This document shows, piece by piece, positions 17,202 to 60,318 of a stretch of 64,000 nt of DNA. This DNA comes from Candidatus Sulfomarinibacteraceae bacterium (GTDB taxonomy: Bacteria; Acidobacteriota; Thermoanaerobaculia; Thermoanaerobaculales; Sulfomarinibacteraceae): the NCBI GenBank assembly GCA_963785275.1, contig CAWAUY010000028.1, positions 1,916 to 65,915 on the forward strand, written 5' to 3'. The position numbers and the translations under genes were made by a program. The notes under the pieces were generated by a model. The model was given only the letters and a program-made list of their open reading frames with translations. It was not told where the DNA came from and did not search any database. Within the stretch, counting starts at the first letter, position 1, and every line of letters starts with the position of its first letter.

Positions 17202-17234
17202 ACCCGCGCCCGCGATCCGCGCGCCGAAGAGACC

Positions 17235-17268
17235 GAAAAACCGCGACGCTCGGCGTCGCGGTTTCTCT
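17235..17268. terminator. Bidirectional intrinsic terminator between convergent adh and icd
   Basis: Perfect 10-bp stem ACCGCGACGC(17240-17249), loop TCG, GCGTCGCGGT(17253-17262). Flanked by an A-run on the left (GAAAAA) and TTTCTCT on the right. Confidence 0.65.
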
Positions 17269-17294
17269 GTCTCACGATGGGCCGTCGAACCGAC

Positions 17295-33894: not shown

Positions 33895-34010
33895 GGAAAT
33901 TTTGAATGTTAAGTTTTGAGTTTTGAGTTTCCGGCTGCGACGACTCGGCAAGCCCGAGTGGAAATTCCAGGTCAATTCAAAATTCAAAATTCAAAATTGA
34001 AAATTGAACC
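33895..34010 (+). repeat. Heptamer-repeat hairpin element A (TTTTGAR x4 ... AATTSAA x5)
   Basis: The left arm holds TTTTGAA TGTTAAG TTTTGAG TTTTGAG (33900-33927). The right arm holds AATTCAA x3 plus AATTGAA x2 (33974-34008). 33897-33929 pairs with 33974-34006: 26 Watson-Crick pairs, 3 G.U and 4 mismatches. The apical GC mini-hairpin is ACTCGG/CCGAGT (33943-33959). The element starts 2 nt after the gdh stop. Confidence 0.7.
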
Positions 34011-34013
34011 GTG

Positions 34014-34041
34014 TTGACCAACAAGGGGCCGTTGATATAGT
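34014..34041 (+). promoter_or_regulatory. Sigma70-type promoter of tRNA-Gln
   Basis: TTGACC(34014-34019)-N16-TATAGT(34036-34041), 27 nt upstream of the tRNA 5' end. Confidence 0.55.
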
Positions 34042-36408: not shown

Positions 36409-36499
36409 AAATTTTGAATTCTCAATTCCCATCAACCTGCGCGGGCATCGAGGTGTGGGCCCGTCATTCAAAATTCAAAATTGAGAATTAAGAATTCAC
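36409..36499 (+). repeat. Heptamer-repeat hairpin element B (same family as element A)
   Basis: The left end AAATTTTGAATTCTCAATT (36409-36427) shares AAATTTTGAAT with element A. The right array is CATTCAA AATTCAA AATTGAG AATTAAG AATTCAC (36465-36499). 36410-36427 pairs with 36479-36496: 16 Watson-Crick pairs, 1 U.G and 1 mismatch (g36416/a36490), including 11 consecutive pairs. It is preceded by GGCCGGCCGGCC (36397-36408). The right arm overlaps the osmC stop codon. Confidence 0.65.
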
Positions 36500-53830: not shown

Positions 53831-56200
53831 GTGGACCGCTCGATCGCTTCTGACGTCGAGTTCGACAAAGTACTTCAGTTGATCGCGGCCCACGCCCGCA
53901 GCGGCGTGGGCCGTATTTTTCTCGAGCGTTCGGTTGTCGAACCTCATCCAGGTGGCGACCCCGACGATGCCGCCCGTCTGGTGCTCGCCCTGACCGAGCT
54001 GATCGAGGATGATGAGACGCTCTCATTCGCCGGGGTCGACGACGCACTGCCGTGGTTGGAGGACGATGCGCCGCCGCCGTCCGAACCGCGCGATCTCCTC
54101 GCCCTGCTCGGTCTCGCAAAGAGGGTGGCGGCCGTTCGCCGCCGGTTCGGCGCCGCCGCGAGCGATCGCCTGCGCGCCCTCGCGGAGAAGCTCCCCGACA
54201 CGACCGAACTCGTCGCCGCGGTGTCGCCGCGCCTCAACGCTGACGGAACGGTCGCGGACTCCGCGTCGTCGGAGCTGCAACGTCTGCGCCGCGAGGTCGG
54301 GCGGGCACGCACCGATGTGACGGCCGAACTTGACGGCATCCGGCGCGCCCACGGCGATGTGGTGACCGATGCGCCGCCGACGCTGCGCCGCGATCGCTAC
54401 TGCCTGCCGGTCAGGTCGTCGGCCAGAGGGCAGCTTCCGGGTCTCCTGCTGGATGTCTCGGCCCGTGGTGCAACCGCCTTTGTCGAACCGCTGGCCGTAG
54501 TCGAGCTCAACAATCGGTTGACCGCCGCGTCTGCGGGTGAGCGGCGCGAGATCCAGCGGATCCTGGCCGAGATCGCCCGTCAATTCGCCGCGGCGCACGA
54601 CGATCTGGCTGCGGCCGTTGAGGTGCTCGCCGAAATCGACGCTGTCCAGGCCAAAGTTTTGTTCGGGCGTCGAGTCGATGGCCGGGTCGTCCTGCCGGCG
54701 GCGACATCCGAACTGGTTTTGCGCGGCGCCCGCCACCCGCTGCTCGACGAGCGTTTGCATGCTCTGAGGGTCGATGTTTTCGGGGACATGGAACAGCGCG
54801 ACCCCGGGCATCGGGTCGTGCCGTTGGATTTCGCGATGCCGGAGGGCATCCGGACCCTCGTGGTCTCGGGGCCGAACGCGGGCGGCAAGACCGTCGTCCT
54901 CAAGACCATCGGTCTCATGGCATTGATGAGTCAGCATGGAATTCCGCTGCCTGTTGATGAGGGCACGGCCATCCCGGACTTCTCCCGTCTGTGGTGCCAT
55001 ATCGGTGACGAGCAGAACGTTGCGGCGGATCTGTCGACTTTTTCCGGTTCTATGGCGGCCACCGCCCGTCTCCTCGACGACGCGGACGACACCACACTGG
55101 TGTTGTTCGACGAGCTCGGCGCCGGCACCGATCCACTCGAGGGGGCTGCGATCGGATGCGCCCTTCTCGAAGAGTTGTCAAACCGCGGCGCGGTCACAGT
55201 GGTCTCGACCCACCTCGCGGCGATCGCCTTGTCGGCGAATTCGGCGAACGGCATGGAGAACGCGGCGGTGGAGTACGACGAAGACACCCAGCGTCCCACC
55301 TACGTTCTCGCCGTAGGCCGGCCCGGGCGATCGCGGGCGTTGGAAATCGCAGACCGCGTGGGAGTGTCGCACGCGGTGCTCGAACGAGCGCGAGAGCTTC
55401 TCGGCGGCGATCACCTCGAACTCGACCGCTGGCTGCGTCGCCTCGAAAATCTAGAGATGCAGCTCGAGGCCGAGCGCTCCGAGGTCGCGCTGCTGCGAGC
55501 CGAGACCGACGGATACCAACAGGAGGCCAGACGCGAACTGCAGAAACTCGAGAACGAACGCCTTGCCCTCCCGGAGGTGTTGGCCGCAGAACGTGACGAG
55601 CTGCGCCGACGCGCCAAGAAGAAGCTCGACGCCGCCATCACGCGTCTCCAGAGTGCGGTGGAGGAACACGAGGCGCTCGGCAGGAGGCGATTGCAGAAGC
55701 TGCGCGACGAGGCTCTCGACCTCGATGATCGTCAGGTGTCGCCAACTCCGAGCGCCGGCGGTCTCGAGGTCGGCGCGCGGGTCCGGCTTGCAGTCGGTGG
55801 CAAGGGCGTGCTGCGCGAGATCCGCGGATCGCAGGCCCGGGTGGAAGTGGCCGGCAAGAAACTGTGGGTGCCGGTGGGCGAGCTCCAGGTGGTTGCGGGG
55901 CCGCCCCCCGCGCAGCAAGCGGCCGTGAGGGTGGAGACCGTCGACCCGTCGGACCGCGAACTCAAGCTGATTGGTCTCGACCGCGAACACGCCCGCGAGG
56001 AGCTCGAGCGCTTTCTCGATCGGGCCTCGACCTCGGGTCTGCCCGCGGTGCGGGTGGTGCACGGCCACGGGACGGGGACCCTCCGTCGACTGGTCACCGA
56101 GATCTGTCGTTCGCACCCTTCCGTCCGCTCGTTCCGCCACCCGCCTCAGCACCGCGGCGGCACGGGGGCCACTGAAGTGGAGCTGGATCACGGCTCGTGA
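53831..56200 (+). CDS. mutS2: Endonuclease MutS2 (MutS domain plus C-terminal Smr domain)
   Basis: Walker A VVSGPNAGGKTV, LFDELGAGTDP, and the Smr domain LIGLDREHAREELERFLDRA...VRVVHGHGTGTLR. GTG start. Confidence 0.92.
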   Translation: MDRSIASDVEFDKVLQLIAAHARSGVGRIFLERSVVEPHPGGDPDDAARLVLALTELIEDDETLSFAGVDDALPWLEDDAPPPSEPRDLLALLGLAKRVAAVRRRFGAAASDRLRALAEKLPDTTELVAAVSPRLNADGTVADSASSELQRLRREVGRARTDVTAELDGIRRAHGDVVTDAPPTLRRDRYCLPVRSSARGQLPGLLLDVSARGATAFVEPLAVVELNNRLTAASAGERREIQRILAEIARQFAAAHDDLAAAVEVLAEIDAVQAKVLFGRRVDGRVVLPAATSELVLRGARHPLLDERLHALRVDVFGDMEQRDPGHRVVPLDFAMPEGIRTLVVSGPNAGGKTVVLKTIGLMALMSQHGIPLPVDEGTAIPDFSRLWCHIGDEQNVAADLSTFSGSMAATARLLDDADDTTLVLFDELGAGTDPLEGAAIGCALLEELSNRGAVTVVSTHLAAIALSANSANGMENAAVEYDEDTQRPTYVLAVGRPGRSRALEIADRVGVSHAVLERARELLGGDHLELDRWLRRLENLEMQLEAERSEVALLRAETDGYQQEARRELQKLENERLALPEVLAAERDELRRRAKKKLDAAITRLQSAVEEHEALGRRRLQKLRDEALDLDDRQVSPTPSAGGLEVGARVRLAVGGKGVLREIRGSQARVEVAGKKLWVPVGELQVVAGPPPAQQAAVRVETVDPSDRELKLIGLDREHAREELERFLDRASTSGLPAVRVVHGHGTGTLRRLVTEICRSHPSVRSFRHPPQHRGGTGATEVELDHGS

Positions 56201-56243
56201 AACCAAGAATCAACTGATAGGTTGCGGTCGGTATGAATCAGAT

Positions 56244-56418
56244 ATTTGATCTTGGATTTTGGATATTTGTTCTTACGGTGCTCTACGCTTGGCCTGCTTG
56301 TGGTGGCGATTACGATTTGTTGACATCCAACATCCAACATCCTGTCAACACTCCGCGATCTTACCATTCCGAGAAGCAGTCTGGCAAGAGTATCCAACAT
56401 CCAACATCCAACATCCGT
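56244..56418 (+). repeat. Heptamer-repeat element C: one (nTTGGAT) array and two complementary (CATCCAA) arrays between mutS2 and dnaG
   Basis: L array: ATTTGAT CTTGGAT TTTGGAT ATTTGTT (56244-56271). R1 array: CATCCAA CATCCAA CATCC (56324-56342), sitting in the loop of the 8-bp hairpin TGTTGACA/TGTCAACA (56318-56325/56343-56350). R2 array: TATCCAA CATCCAA CATCCAA CATCCGT (56391-56418). Confidence 0.7.
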
Positions 56419-56442
56419 ACCTTTATGTAAGAATGACCCCTC

Positions 56443-58200
56443 ATGGTAGACGCTGACCTGACCCGCGATGTCATTTCGCGCGTGCGCGAGGCCGCCGATA
56501 TGGTGGATGTGGCGGGCGAGTATGTGAGGCTGAAGAAGCGGGGTCGGACGTGGGAGGGGTTGTGCCCGTTCCACGAAGAAAAGACCCCTTCGTTCTCGGT
56601 GGATGCGGAAAAAGGCCTCTACTACTGTTTCGGCTGCCATCAGGGCGGCGACATTTTCAAGTTCCTGATGCAGCTCGAAAACCTCAATTTCCCCGAGGCT
56701 GTCGAGCGGTTGGCGCGCCGCTACGGGGTGACGCTGCCGCCCCGAAGCCCCGAAGCCAGACAACGGCGCGACGCCGGCGACCGCCAGCGCGTCCTCCTCG
56801 AGGAGGCGCAGCGTTTCTTCGCCGAGTGCCTGGAACAACCGATGGGTCGCGAAGCGCAGACCGAACTCGATCGCCGGGGTTTTGCAAAGGAGAGTTGGCA
56901 GGCGTTTGGCTTCGGATTTGCTCCGGACGGCTGGCGCGGCCTCCTGGACCATCTGACCAGGCGGCATCCCGAAGGCGCTCTCGTTGAGGCCGGTCTCGCC
57001 GTGCGCCCTGAAAGCGGGACCGCGCCGTACGACCGATTTCGCAACCGCCTGACCTTTCCTGTGCGCAGCGGCGACGGCGCGTTGATCGCATTCGGCGGCC
57101 GTGTCCTCGGCGACGGCGAACCCAAGTATCTGAACAGCCCGGAGACCCAGATCTTCCGCAAACGATCGACGCTCTTCTGTCTGGATCGGGCGCGGCGGGC
57201 GATCGCCGACCAGGCGACGGTGCTGGTCGTCGAAGGCTACTTTGATTGTCTCTCCCTGCACCGGGTCGGAATCTCAAACGCCGTGGCGACTCTGGGCACC
57301 GCGCTGACGACCGATCACGCGCGGCTTCTCAAACGGCGGCTCGGACCCGAAGGCCTGGCTCTGCTCTGCTACGACGCTGACAATGCAGGGCGCCGTGCTG
57401 CAGCGTCCGGCGCGCAGACCCTCCTCGAAACCGGAGTCGACGTGGCCGTTATCGTCCTGCCGATGGGAGAAGACCCCGACGATGTCATTCGTGAACGCGG
57501 GGTCGAGTCGTTTCGCGAGACCCTCGATCACCCGACGCCTCTGCTCGAGTTCCTGCTCGGCGACCTCCCGCCCGAACCTGCCCGCCGCCGGCGCGCGGGT
57601 TTGCAGCTGGCGCCTCTTGTGTGCTCGGCATCCGATCCTGCCGTGCGCCAGAATCTGATCGAGGAGCTGGCTCGGCAACTGTATCTTCGGCCTAGAGATG
57701 TGGAAGAGCATGGAAACCGGGGGCGGCGCGGTCCGGTCGCCCCGTCGAGTGCTGTGCCCAAGCGGCAGGCTCTGCCGTCTGGCGAACGGGAGCTGTTGCG
57801 GATGGTCATCGAGGGTTCACAGGAGTGGCGCCGTCGGATCCTGGACGCCGTCGACCTGGACCTGATCGAGGACCCGCGGGTGAAAGCCATTCTCGATGCT
57901 GCTCGCGAGACTGACGGGTCTGCGGAGAGCGCCGCCGATTTTGTGGGGGACCTGGTCCGGCGAACCGAGCAACCGGACCTCGGTTCGCTGGTCGCGGAGC
58001 TGAGCACGGCGCCGATGCCCGAGGTGACCGAAGAGACCATTCGCCGCCAGCTGACCCTCCTCTTGGAACACCAGGCCAGGGAGCTCGCGCGGCGGTTGGC
58101 GCCGCTGATTGCCGAGGCCGAGGCGCGAGGTGACCTGGCTGAATTGGACAGATTATTGGGGGAAAAAGCCAGATTACGGCAGAAAAATGTAGAAATCTGA
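56443..58200 (+). CDS. dnaG: DNA primase
   Basis: Zinc finger CPFHEEKTPSFSVDAEKGLYYCFGCHQGGD and the TOPRIM motif VVEGYFDCLS...DADNAGRRAA. Confidence 0.95.
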   Translation: MVDADLTRDVISRVREAADMVDVAGEYVRLKKRGRTWEGLCPFHEEKTPSFSVDAEKGLYYCFGCHQGGDIFKFLMQLENLNFPEAVERLARRYGVTLPPRSPEARQRRDAGDRQRVLLEEAQRFFAECLEQPMGREAQTELDRRGFAKESWQAFGFGFAPDGWRGLLDHLTRRHPEGALVEAGLAVRPESGTAPYDRFRNRLTFPVRSGDGALIAFGGRVLGDGEPKYLNSPETQIFRKRSTLFCLDRARRAIADQATVLVVEGYFDCLSLHRVGISNAVATLGTALTTDHARLLKRRLGPEGLALLCYDADNAGRRAAASGAQTLLETGVDVAVIVLPMGEDPDDVIRERGVESFRETLDHPTPLLEFLLGDLPPEPARRRRAGLQLAPLVCSASDPAVRQNLIEELARQLYLRPRDVEEHGNRGRRGPVAPSSAVPKRQALPSGERELLRMVIEGSQEWRRRILDAVDLDLIEDPRVKAILDAARETDGSAESAADFVGDLVRRTEQPDLGSLVAELSTAPMPEVTEETIRRQLTLLLEHQARELARRLAPLIAEAEARGDLAELDRLLGEKARLRQKNVEI

Positions 58201-58471: not shown

Positions 58472-60187
<1,716 letters not shown>

Positions 60188-60194
60188 TCTCGGA

Positions 60195-60296
60195 GGCTTG
60201 GGGCCTGGGGCTTGGGGCTTGAGATCCGAAATCAAGGCCAAACCTCAAGCCTCGAGCCCCAGGCCCCAAGCCCATCTACCGGCTTGCTGGTAGATG
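60195..60296 (+). repeat. Heptamer-repeat hairpin element D (CTTGGGG-type / CCCCAAG-type arms, 29-bp stem) plus a second 8-bp hairpin
   Basis: 60195-60223 pairs with 60244-60272 over 29 consecutive pairs: 27 Watson-Crick and 2 G.U. The loop is 20 nt. The second hairpin is CATCTACC(60273-60280)/GGTAGATG(60289-60296). The element starts 8 nt after the rpoD stop and ends 23 nt before tRNA-Met. Confidence 0.8.
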
Positions 60297-60318
60297 ACGT
60301 CCGCGGTACCATGTGCCG

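Follow-up and report, generated by a model that had tools for sequence, protein, structure and literature searches.

Element C is a set of inverted heptanucleotide repeat arrays in the spacer between mutS2 and dnaG of a Candidatus Sulfomarinibacteraceae bacterium, within a stretch of 64,000 nucleotides (nt) of contig CAWAUY010000028.1 (assembly GCA_963785275.1), hereafter the window. The best explanation for this element is that it belongs to a class of hairpins with tandem-repeat arms, of a period of approximately 7 nt, found across the lineage at operon boundaries. The structure is conserved in position, the arrays turn over between closely related strains, and a conserved −10 box lies between the arrays and dnaG. 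As regards function, the chances are judged about even that element C is an operon-boundary hairpin that acts on mutS2 transcripts, is held in place by selection, and is rebuilt by slippage.

Inverted heptamer arrays in the mutS2–dnaG spacer

The array sequences, their inverted layout, and the presentation of one array in the loop of an 8-bp hairpin, all described in an earlier note made from the sequence alone, were borne out base by base. The left array, L, has four degenerate units (ATTTGAT CTTGGAT TTTGGAT ATTTGTT, 56244-56271) and starts 39-44 nt past the mutS2 stop codon. It is followed by two right-hand arrays, R1, which is (CATCCAA)2.9 at 56323-56342, and R2, with 3.6 copies, each with a period of 7 and a 100 % match in Tandem Repeats Finder. 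R2 ends 24 nt before the dnaG ATG (56443). Compared by a repeat finder with R1 and with R2, L gives inverted arms of 17-25 nt with 82-88 % complementarity. The parts of the element are as follows.

56241-56274, plus strand: L, the G/T-rich 5′ arm; degenerate heptamers, homologous to (TATTGGA)4 of strain L081.
56277-56390, plus strand: inner domain; an imperfect middle stem (approximately 56277-56316 with 56351-56390), predicted only, by minimum free energy (MFE), and bearing the apical hairpin.
56318-56350, plus strand: apical 8-bp hairpin TGTTGACA/TGTCAACA, with R1 in the 17-nt loop; −8.0 kcal/mol, z = −2.2.
56391-56418, plus strand: R2, the C/A-rich 3′ arm (TATCCAA CATCCAA CATCCAA CATCCGT); the array predicted to pair with L at equilibrium in this genome.

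In the apical hairpin, TGTTGACA (56318-56325) is perfectly complementary to TGTCAACA (56343-56350), and the enclosed TCCAACATCCAACATCC is R1. The CATCCAA unit is confined to this locus within the window. Allowing up to three mismatches, the 14-mer ATCCAACATCCAAC has 11 matches in the window, seven of which (7 out of 11) are within this 180-nt spacer; shuffled controls had a mean of 3.8 and a maximum of 9 matches, with none of 100 shuffles giving 11. The open reading frames (ORFs) of the spacer are translations of the arrays only, the IQHPTSNI strings being the arrays in translation, which agrees with the earlier note having called the IQHPTSNIQHP ORFs spurious products of the repeats.

The hairpin in related genomes

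At the mutS2–dnaG spacer, the conserved feature is a repeat-built hairpin and no particular sequence. Comparisons were made between the window and 80 loci (L001-L080; 1.36 Mb together with the window). These loci and the DnaG homologues place the window in Ca. Sulfomarinibacteraceae (Acidobacteriota, Thermoanaerobaculia), an uncultured marine-sediment lineage. The synteny of mutS2 and dnaG extends across the Thermoanaerobaculia: in approximately 45 loci mutS2 is directly upstream of dnaG, with DnaG identity down to 42 % and a spacer of 2 to 924 nt. A comparable structure in this spacer of relatives had been named as a check on the element, and of the spacers of at least 40 nt, approximately 29 out of 44 contain a hairpin of z at least 5, most of which have tandem-repeat arms. 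Inverted pairs of tandem arrays (hairpin z of 5 to 25) are present in the spacer of most Sulfomarinibacteraceae and several Thermoanaerobaculaceae. The period is 7 in most cases and 6, 8 or 9 in some, and different genomes have different units, as follows.

GGCTTGA/CCAAGCC: spacer unit in L001, L005, and L083.
CAGGATT/CTGCATC: spacer unit in L002.
GGCAATGA octamers: spacer unit in L003 and L004.
GCTATGG/CATAGCC: spacer unit in L006, L012, L026, and L084.
GGAATTA/TAATTCC: spacer unit in L008.
GGTCCTGA octamers: spacer unit in L009.
GGGGACC: spacer unit in L065.
AGGGGAG: spacer unit in L069.
GGGGTCC: spacer unit in L072 and L076.

A metagenome scan with the dnaG start region found one extra contig only, L084, which has another inverted pair (GGGCTAT/CATAGCC). 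Among the arrays of the related loci there are 61 distinct units in 110 arrays. When all tandem repeats of at least three copies in the window and the 80 loci are considered, period 7 is the commonest (118 arrays), followed by period 6 (77) and period 9 (44). Unit families also change slots, CCAAGCC being located after rpoD in the window and before dnaG in L001 and L005.

Many of the orthologous spacers have a single right-hand array, while L003 and L004 have several for one left-hand array. At L003 9676-10000, and also in L004, a bipartite G-rich octamer array (GGCAATGA) is followed by at least five modules of C-rich octamer array and small GC hairpin (CCAGGTCGCG..CGACC), which is a multi-module form of the arrangement with one left and several right arrays.

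Predicted folding and choice of partner

The best ungapped stem between L and R2 has 29-nt arms with 23 Watson-Crick pairs, one G.U, two A.C, and three other oppositions (z-score of 5.7 against mononucleotide shuffles); it is AT-rich, with a mismatch about every 7 nt. The spacer is predicted to fold into one composite long hairpin, with L:R2 as the outer stem, the imperfect middle stem within it, and the 8-bp hairpin with R1 at the apex. At equilibrium the expected number of pairs is 14.5 for L:R2 and 0.0 for L:R1. When R2 is blocked the fold loses 10 kcal/mol and L:R1 is still unused; the L:R1 pairing appears only when the transcript is cut short of R2, as a nascent one would be. The earlier suggestion that L can pair with either right-hand array therefore stands as far as complementarity is concerned, but the two folds are unbalanced, and the imbalance is reversed in strain L081.

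Array turnover between strains

Strain L081 encodes a DnaG protein 100 % identical to that of the window, and the DNA flanks are 99.0-99.3 % identical. Homology stops 16 nt before the mutS2 stop codon and returns after R1. These surroundings enclose a hypervariable island, 56185-56339 in the window and 2385-2895 in L081, that takes in the last five codons of mutS2 (ELDHGS* versus ELGES*), L, and R1. The arrays in L081 are (TATTGGA)4 for L, approximately 10 units for R1 as against three in the window, so the copy-number variation that had been put forward as a check is present, and a degenerate R2 (ATCCAAA ATCCAAC ATCCAGC ATTCGAG). The 5′ half of the middle stem is unconserved, and L081 carries an insertion of approximately 350 nt with its own long inverted repeat. 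Between R1 and R2 of L081, at 2690-2920, there is a near-perfect inverted repeat of approximately 230 nt (gccccggaggggcga ... tcgcccctccggggc; cccggggcgcgagccccggg), which looks like an insertion of the miniature inverted-repeat transposable element type.

Expected pairs in L081 are 17.5 for L:R1 and 0.16 for L:R2, the reverse of the choice in the window. On these folding predictions, the L-containing hairpin persists between the strains and its pairing partner does not, which is the opposite of what would be expected of a tuned two-state switch.

Turnover this extreme, with a hypervariable island amid 99 % identity, could also be that of a non-adaptive by-product, generated by slippage in free intergenic DNA and by palindrome-templated repair copying, with no role in mutS2 or dnaG expression. 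The 61 distinct units in 110 arrays, which have no common motif, and the lack of a strand-specific wobble signal (see below) are in keeping with this. Among long simple-sequence repeats, heptamers are the most frequent class in many bacteria, polymerase slippage being the proposed cause (Mrazek 2007, as cited in PMC4679880 and PMC4692102). The evidence bearing against this explanation comes from the placement of the hairpins, presented with the gene-end survey.

Flanking genes and the start of dnaG

The genes and start signal around the spacer are as follows.

53831-56200, plus strand: mutS2 (MutS_V and Smr), by Pfam matches; its stop codon is 39-44 nt upstream of the hairpin.
56426-56434, plus strand: TGTAAGAAT, a −10-like box of the extended type, separated from the dnaG ATG by 8 nt; a looser variant of the box of the class, and a putative promoter.
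56443-58200, plus strand: dnaG, primase, by Pfam matches and homologues.
58472-60187, plus strand: rpoD, sigma-70, by Pfam matches to Sigma70 regions 1.1 to 4.

The C-terminal motif of mutS2, FRHPPQHRGGTGATEVEL, is kept in approximately 45 loci immediately upstream of dnaG. The gap of 271 nt between dnaG and rpoD has no strong hairpin (best score 8.6), therefore rpoD is probably co-transcribed with dnaG. A −10-type box (TGYGAGAAT, TACAAT or TACTAT) with its end 6-9 nt upstream of the dnaG start codon, ATG or GTG, is present in 35 out of 61 loci, as compared with 0.19 % of random positions; across the class the box is conserved at 7-8 nt from the start codon. No Shine-Dalgarno sequence is present upstream of dnaG, although many other genes in the window have one, rpoD included. 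Due to the conserved −10 box and the missing Shine-Dalgarno sequence, the simplest reading is that the dnaG(-rpoD) mRNA is probably leaderless, with its main start at or beside the ATG and downstream of all three arrays; the same signals suggest leaderless dnaG(-rpoD) mRNA in much of the Thermoanaerobaculia. Relative to this putative start, R2 is located at about −52 to −25. The spacing between the end of the arrays and the −10 box varies and there is no conserved −35 element, which is consistent with an extended −10 promoter. Other starts in the window also look leaderless, TAAACT being 8 nt before the ATG of a PhoH/PIN-like gene (34884) and TAGCTT 6 nt before the GTG of mutS2 (53831).

The arrays themselves could be transcribed by read-through from mutS2 or from a weak distal promoter-like site in the inner domain, TTGGCC (56289-56294) and TACGAT (56311-56316) separated by 16 nt, which was read by eye and is below the scan threshold. 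At the matching place, relatives have TCGACA-16-GACAAT (L081) and TTGACA-16-TACGAT (L002). The sole match in the promoter scan is antisense, on the minus strand at 56387-56358 (TTGCCA-18-TAAGAT with an upstream TG), and its −10 is unconserved in L081. TTGACA at 56320-56325 was rejected as a −35 element, its paired −10 being TGTCAA, without the key A2 and T6.

These signals bear on the earlier proposal of a two-state riboregulatory attenuator, in which L would pair with R1 or with R2 and the mutually exclusive folds would set how much mutS2 read-through, or transcript from a distal promoter, reaches dnaG. Both pairings are physically possible and a nascent transcript short of R2 folds L:R1; the layout of L, R1, and R2 is present in L081 as well, L003 and L004 likewise have multiple right-hand arrays for each left-hand array, and if transcription began at the weak promoter-like site noticed by eye in the loop, R1 and R2 would lie in a 5′ untranslated region (UTR). 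However, the equilibrium fold has none of the L:R1 pairs even with R2 blocked, the preferred partner flips in L081 despite flanks that are 99 % identical, a single right-hand array is all that many orthologues have, and the −10 box would place the main dnaG start downstream of the arrays. The spacer lacks a U-tract and any candidate leader peptide, aptamer, or T-box that could act as a sensor, and an Rfam search of element C found no family at the gathering threshold or at E-values up to 5. An attenuator acting on dnaG is considered highly improbable.

The location of R2 at about −52 to −25 raises instead an element that acts as DNA, in which the arrays, flanking or overlapping the −35 and upstream region of dnaG, would serve as protein-binding arrays or a supercoiling-dependent cruciform and tune expression in a length-graded manner resembling phase variation. 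Paired heptamer arrays in Geobacter metallireducens are annotated as putative global-regulator or IHF/HU sites (PMC2700814), and deletion of a heptamer repeat alters output of the Nostoc recO promoter (bioRxiv 10.1101/2022.06.06.494920). The lack of a sense-RNA wobble signal would also suit such an element. Yet the units vary by locus and genome, making sequence-specific binding unlikely, the hairpins are also found between convergent genes, where there is no promoter, and the distance between array and −10 box is variable; action at the DNA level is regarded as very unlikely.

Repeat-built hairpins at gene ends

Three other elements of the window, designated A, B, and D, have the same architecture of inverted tandem 7-mers 3′ of plus-strand genes with different heptamers, and all three, to which the earlier note had alluded, are present.

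33898-34005, plus strand: element A, TTTTGAG/TTCAAAA heptamer hairpin, located 4 nt past the end of a gene of the glutamate-dehydrogenase type; z = −4.0.
36410-36496, plus strand: element B, TTTTGAA-type heptamer hairpin; it takes up the gap between two convergent genes, one PhoH/PIN-like and one OsmC-like.
60195-60272, plus strand: element D, GGCTTGG/CCAAGCC heptamer hairpin, located 7 nt past the stop codon of rpoD; −68.3 kcal/mol, z = −7.1.

The four heptamer hairpins are among the approximately seven strongest 3′-end hairpins of the window; the RNA fold of element B is not significant against shuffles (z = −0.46). Element A is followed by a promoter-like site, TTGACC-16-TATAGT (34014-34041), and tRNA-Gln, and element D by TTGCTG-17-TACCAT (60284-60312) and tRNA-Met, both sites being sigma-70-type and read by eye. 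The layout in A and D is therefore gene end, hairpin, and promoter-like site, and element C is followed by the conserved −10 box of dnaG. The same genome also has, at approximately 17222-17270 between convergent genes, a non-repeat 21-bp hairpin (GAGACCGAAAAACCGCGACGC/GCGTCGCGGTTTCTCTGTCTC, with at most one G.U or A.C mismatch) that looks like an ordinary bidirectional terminator.

For a wider view, 293 intergenic gaps of 60-350 nt, chosen blind to repeats and delimited by crude ORF-based gene calls, were surveyed. Strong hairpins are present in 42 out of 216 tandem gaps, 14 out of 42 convergent gaps, and one out of 35 divergent gaps (Fisher p = 0.005). For repeat-built hairpins the corresponding numbers are 22, 6, and 0 (p = 0.03), with periods of 7 (21 cases), 8 (six), and 6 (one). 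Arms are 20-50 nt long (median approximately 28). Relative to the stop codon upstream, the start of the 5′ arm usually falls within −12 to +45 nt, and in several genomes this stop codon is part of the first repeat unit; convergent gaps are filled by the hairpin. The slot after rpoD contains a repeat hairpin in 11 out of 53 loci and in some others ordinary terminator-shaped hairpins with A-runs and T-runs, as in L050 (AAAACGCCCGCGACG/CGTCGCGGGCGTTTT) and L053. The gap classes, the proximity to stop codons, the rpoD slot, and the promoter-like sites together place the family in the niche of terminator or operon-boundary hairpins.

Handedness of the arms

In the period-7 hairpins the 5′ arm is G-rich and the 3′ arm C-rich in 39 out of 45 cases (39:6, p = 5e-7). 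The unbiased gap survey agrees, with 22 out of 27 repeat hairpins G-first (22:5), as compared with 15:11 for non-repeat hairpins. In the L:R2 stem of element C the GC skew of the 5′ arm is +0.14. Handedness is unchanged by reverse complementation, and so it does not identify the functional strand; its use as evidence of strand specificity was dropped. Neither arm is systematically better, a comparison of array perfection between the upstream and downstream arms giving 18 against 12, which is not significant.

Several causes of the handedness and of the period were set aside. G-quadruplex (G4) potential was ruled out as the cause of handedness, since AT-rich units are G-first too. A G4 is impossible for the units of elements A, B, and C, the C unit TTGGATN having GG only; element D (GGCTTGGGG) would have the G-tracts of at least three that G4 formation calls for, and A, B, and C would not. 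Stop codons in all three frames were judged by eye and dismissed as a cause of handedness. They were likewise rejected, by eye, as a general rule behind the period of 7; TGA is present in GGCTTGA, GGTCCTGA, and GGCAATGA, and this stop is absent from many units, such as GGGGACC, AGGGGAG, and TTGGATN. The GGA motif of CsrA-type binding is in some units (CAGGATT and TTGGATG) and missing from most of the 61. It is possible that the arrays were seeded from a G-rich, C-free ORF end plus its stop codon, which would be the origin of the handedness.

These distributions tell against the non-adaptive by-product introduced above. Upstream of dnaG and downstream of rpoD, the hairpins recur in the Sulfomarinibacteraceae and as far away as the Thermoanaerobaculaceae, where DnaG is just 42-45 % identical; they are absent from divergent gaps and tightly placed against stop codons, and they have a strong handedness (39:6 and 22:5 G-first) where ordinary hairpins have 15:11. 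A by-product with no role in expression is regarded as unlikely.

Comparison with known systems

Like intrinsic and bidirectional terminators, these hairpins directly follow stop codons, are found in tandem and convergent gaps, and occupy the same slot as the terminator-shaped hairpins of relatives. In E. coli, there is an internal terminator between rpsU and dnaG. A transcriptional barrier upstream of dnaG is also plausible here, and to this extent the E. coli-like role suggested for element C holds as a loose resemblance, but the upstream gene is mutS2 rather than rpsU and the attenuator part of the suggestion is not supported.

REP/REPIN elements and inverted DNA-uptake-sequence pairs are extragenic inverted-repeat hairpins at 3′ ends, which can terminate or stabilise mRNA. 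Elements of the REP (repetitive extragenic palindromic) type have one conserved sequence of 10-40 nt in hundreds of dispersed copies. In contrast, CATCCAA is at one locus in the window, the arms are internally tandem-repetitive, and the related loci have 61 distinct units in 110 arrays. With no single dispersed conserved unit in the 64-kb window and the related loci, identity with REP/REPIN elements was rejected.

Element C matches the structural definition of the heptamer pairs of Xanthomonas, G4 potential excepted. The Xanthomonas GGGAATC arrays make up 70-75 convergent inverted pairs, on average 28 nt after ORFs, with only 7-8 % between divergent genes; their position is kept and their length is variable between species, transcripts begin or end there more often than at controls, and they have been read as G4 formers (Rehm et al., 2015; PMC4692102). 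Shared features are the tandem 7-nt units (typically approximately four copies in Xanthomonas), the two arrays on opposite strands with the G-rich one first, the intergenic location near or overlapping the upstream stop codon, the rarity between divergent genes, and a position that is kept while length and sequence vary (PMC4692102). Unlike Xanthomonas, which has one dominant G-tract unit, there are three unrelated units in 64 kb, mostly unable to form G4 (TTGGATN and TTTTGAR), a given orthologous slot has different units in different genomes, and the phylum is Acidobacteriota.

In G. metallireducens, GGACCGG is repeated four times at 49 sites, and there are sites of paired MTYCTGA in five copies (Aklujkar et al., 2009; PMC2700814). 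These are also tandem heptamers, some of them paired on opposite strands at variable distance (PMC2700814). They differ in being often intragenic, in their annotation as global-regulator or IHF/HU sites or regulatory RNAs, and in having been described without the cross-genome positional comparison made here (PMC2700814). GGACCGG, the unit of the H4 elements of G. metallireducens, is also the unit in the Thermoanaerobaculaceae loci L065, L072, and L076. The cyanobacterial STRR and TAACTGA repeats are intergenic tandem heptamers too (PMC4679880; bioRxiv 10.1101/2022.06.06.494920), but, unlike element C, they are mostly single direct arrays near start codons, with inverted pairs being rare (PMC4692102). 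The Nostoc PCC 7120 units TTTTGAA/TTCAAAA are identical to the unit of elements A and B.

In hmw1A of Haemophilus influenzae, (ATCTTTC)n is one arm of a 5′-UTR hairpin cut by RNase III, and changes in repeat number likewise depend on both the hairpin and the enzyme (PMC12721329). Element C resembles hmw1A in that a heptamer repeat would supply one arm of a long hairpin preceding a gene, with a copy number that varies (R1, three versus approximately 10). The hmw1A hairpin is in a mapped 5′ UTR, has a non-repeat G-rich partner arm, and belongs to a phase-variable surface adhesin, whereas in element C both arms are arrays, the gene is a housekeeping gene, and the arrays are probably upstream of the main transcription start.

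This precedent supports an alternative in which the stem is an RNase III substrate or a block to 3′-exonucleases, separating the fates of the mutS2 and dnaG mRNAs, with array length tuning expression. It overlaps the preferred explanation of an operon-boundary hairpin, differing only in the enzyme that acts. The arms, at 20-50 nt with a median of approximately 28, are of sufficient length for RNase III, and strains differ in copy number. On the other side, the stem is broken by a mismatch roughly every 7 nt, inclusion of the spacer in a dnaG transcript is unsupported, and there is no sense-strand wobble signal. A processing or stability element is judged decidedly unlikely.

A proposed boundary hairpin between mutS2 and dnaG–rpoD

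For the operon-boundary hairpin, the following course of events is proposed. After the mutS2 stop codon, L would pair with a C/A-rich array, R2 here and R1 in the sister strain, to form a long imperfect hairpin just upstream of the dnaG promoter. Transcripts leaving mutS2 would be terminated by it, or would have their 3′ end set and guarded, and RNase III or Rho may take part; the putative leaderless dnaG–rpoD promoter would thereby be shielded from read-through. Replication slippage would lengthen and shorten the arrays, and copying between the arms, by template switching or gene conversion, would renew their complementarity. Through slippage and inter-arm copying the hairpin could stay in place while unit, copy number, and partner change, and the extra array would be a by-product of this turnover rather than half of a switch. 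The role in termination or insulation and the origin by slippage and template switching are both inferred.

A number of observations weigh against this explanation. The whole-spacer MFE of −64.5 kcal/mol has z = −1.85, and nine out of 200 dinucleotide shuffles are equally stable. The L:R2 stem encloses 121 nt. A terminator scan of 55800-56800 found no terminator-like sites, and past the 3′ arm there is no U-tract, CGTACCTTTATG standing there instead, so any termination by element C would be non-canonical. Lacking a U-tract, and with a loop of 121 nt and an AT-rich, mismatched stem, the element falls outside the canonical definition of an intrinsic terminator, which calls for a short G+C-rich stem, a loop of 3-8 nt, and a U-tract after it. 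The depletion in divergent gaps is based on crude ORF-based gene calls and small numbers. Finally, in a test of sense-strand wobble pairs in tandem-context hairpins, there were 47 G.U against 73 A.C (antisense G.U), which for these non-independent data gives p = 0.02 in the wrong direction. Without a sense G.U bias, sense RNA is not singled out over DNA as the object of selection.

Since 2007, heptanucleotide repeats have been reported to be over-represented between bacterial genes, with no function generally accepted, and the pairs in Xanthomonas have been ascribed to G-quadruplexes. In this lineage of Acidobacteriota the same architecture is built from many unrelated, mostly AT-rich units. 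The fixed syntenic slots, the sequence turnover, the interchange with terminator-shaped hairpins, and the handedness favour a structural role at gene ends over G4 formation or sequence-specific binding, and the mutS2/dnaG and rpoD/tRNA junctions are concrete loci at which this role is testable. In a broader proposal, which is considered rather doubtful, G-first tandem-repeat hairpins with a period of about 7, constantly renewed by slippage and by copying between the arms, would replace canonical terminators in the Thermoanaerobaculia, and perhaps in Xanthomonas, Geobacter, and some cyanobacteria. Where they adjoin the putative leaderless promoter of dnaG–rpoD, the hypervariable arrays would then serve as a contingency locus inside a housekeeping operon, tuning primase and sigma-70 expression by mutation. 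If true, such a self-renewing class would require either machinery dedicated to generating it or a factor sensitive to the handedness.

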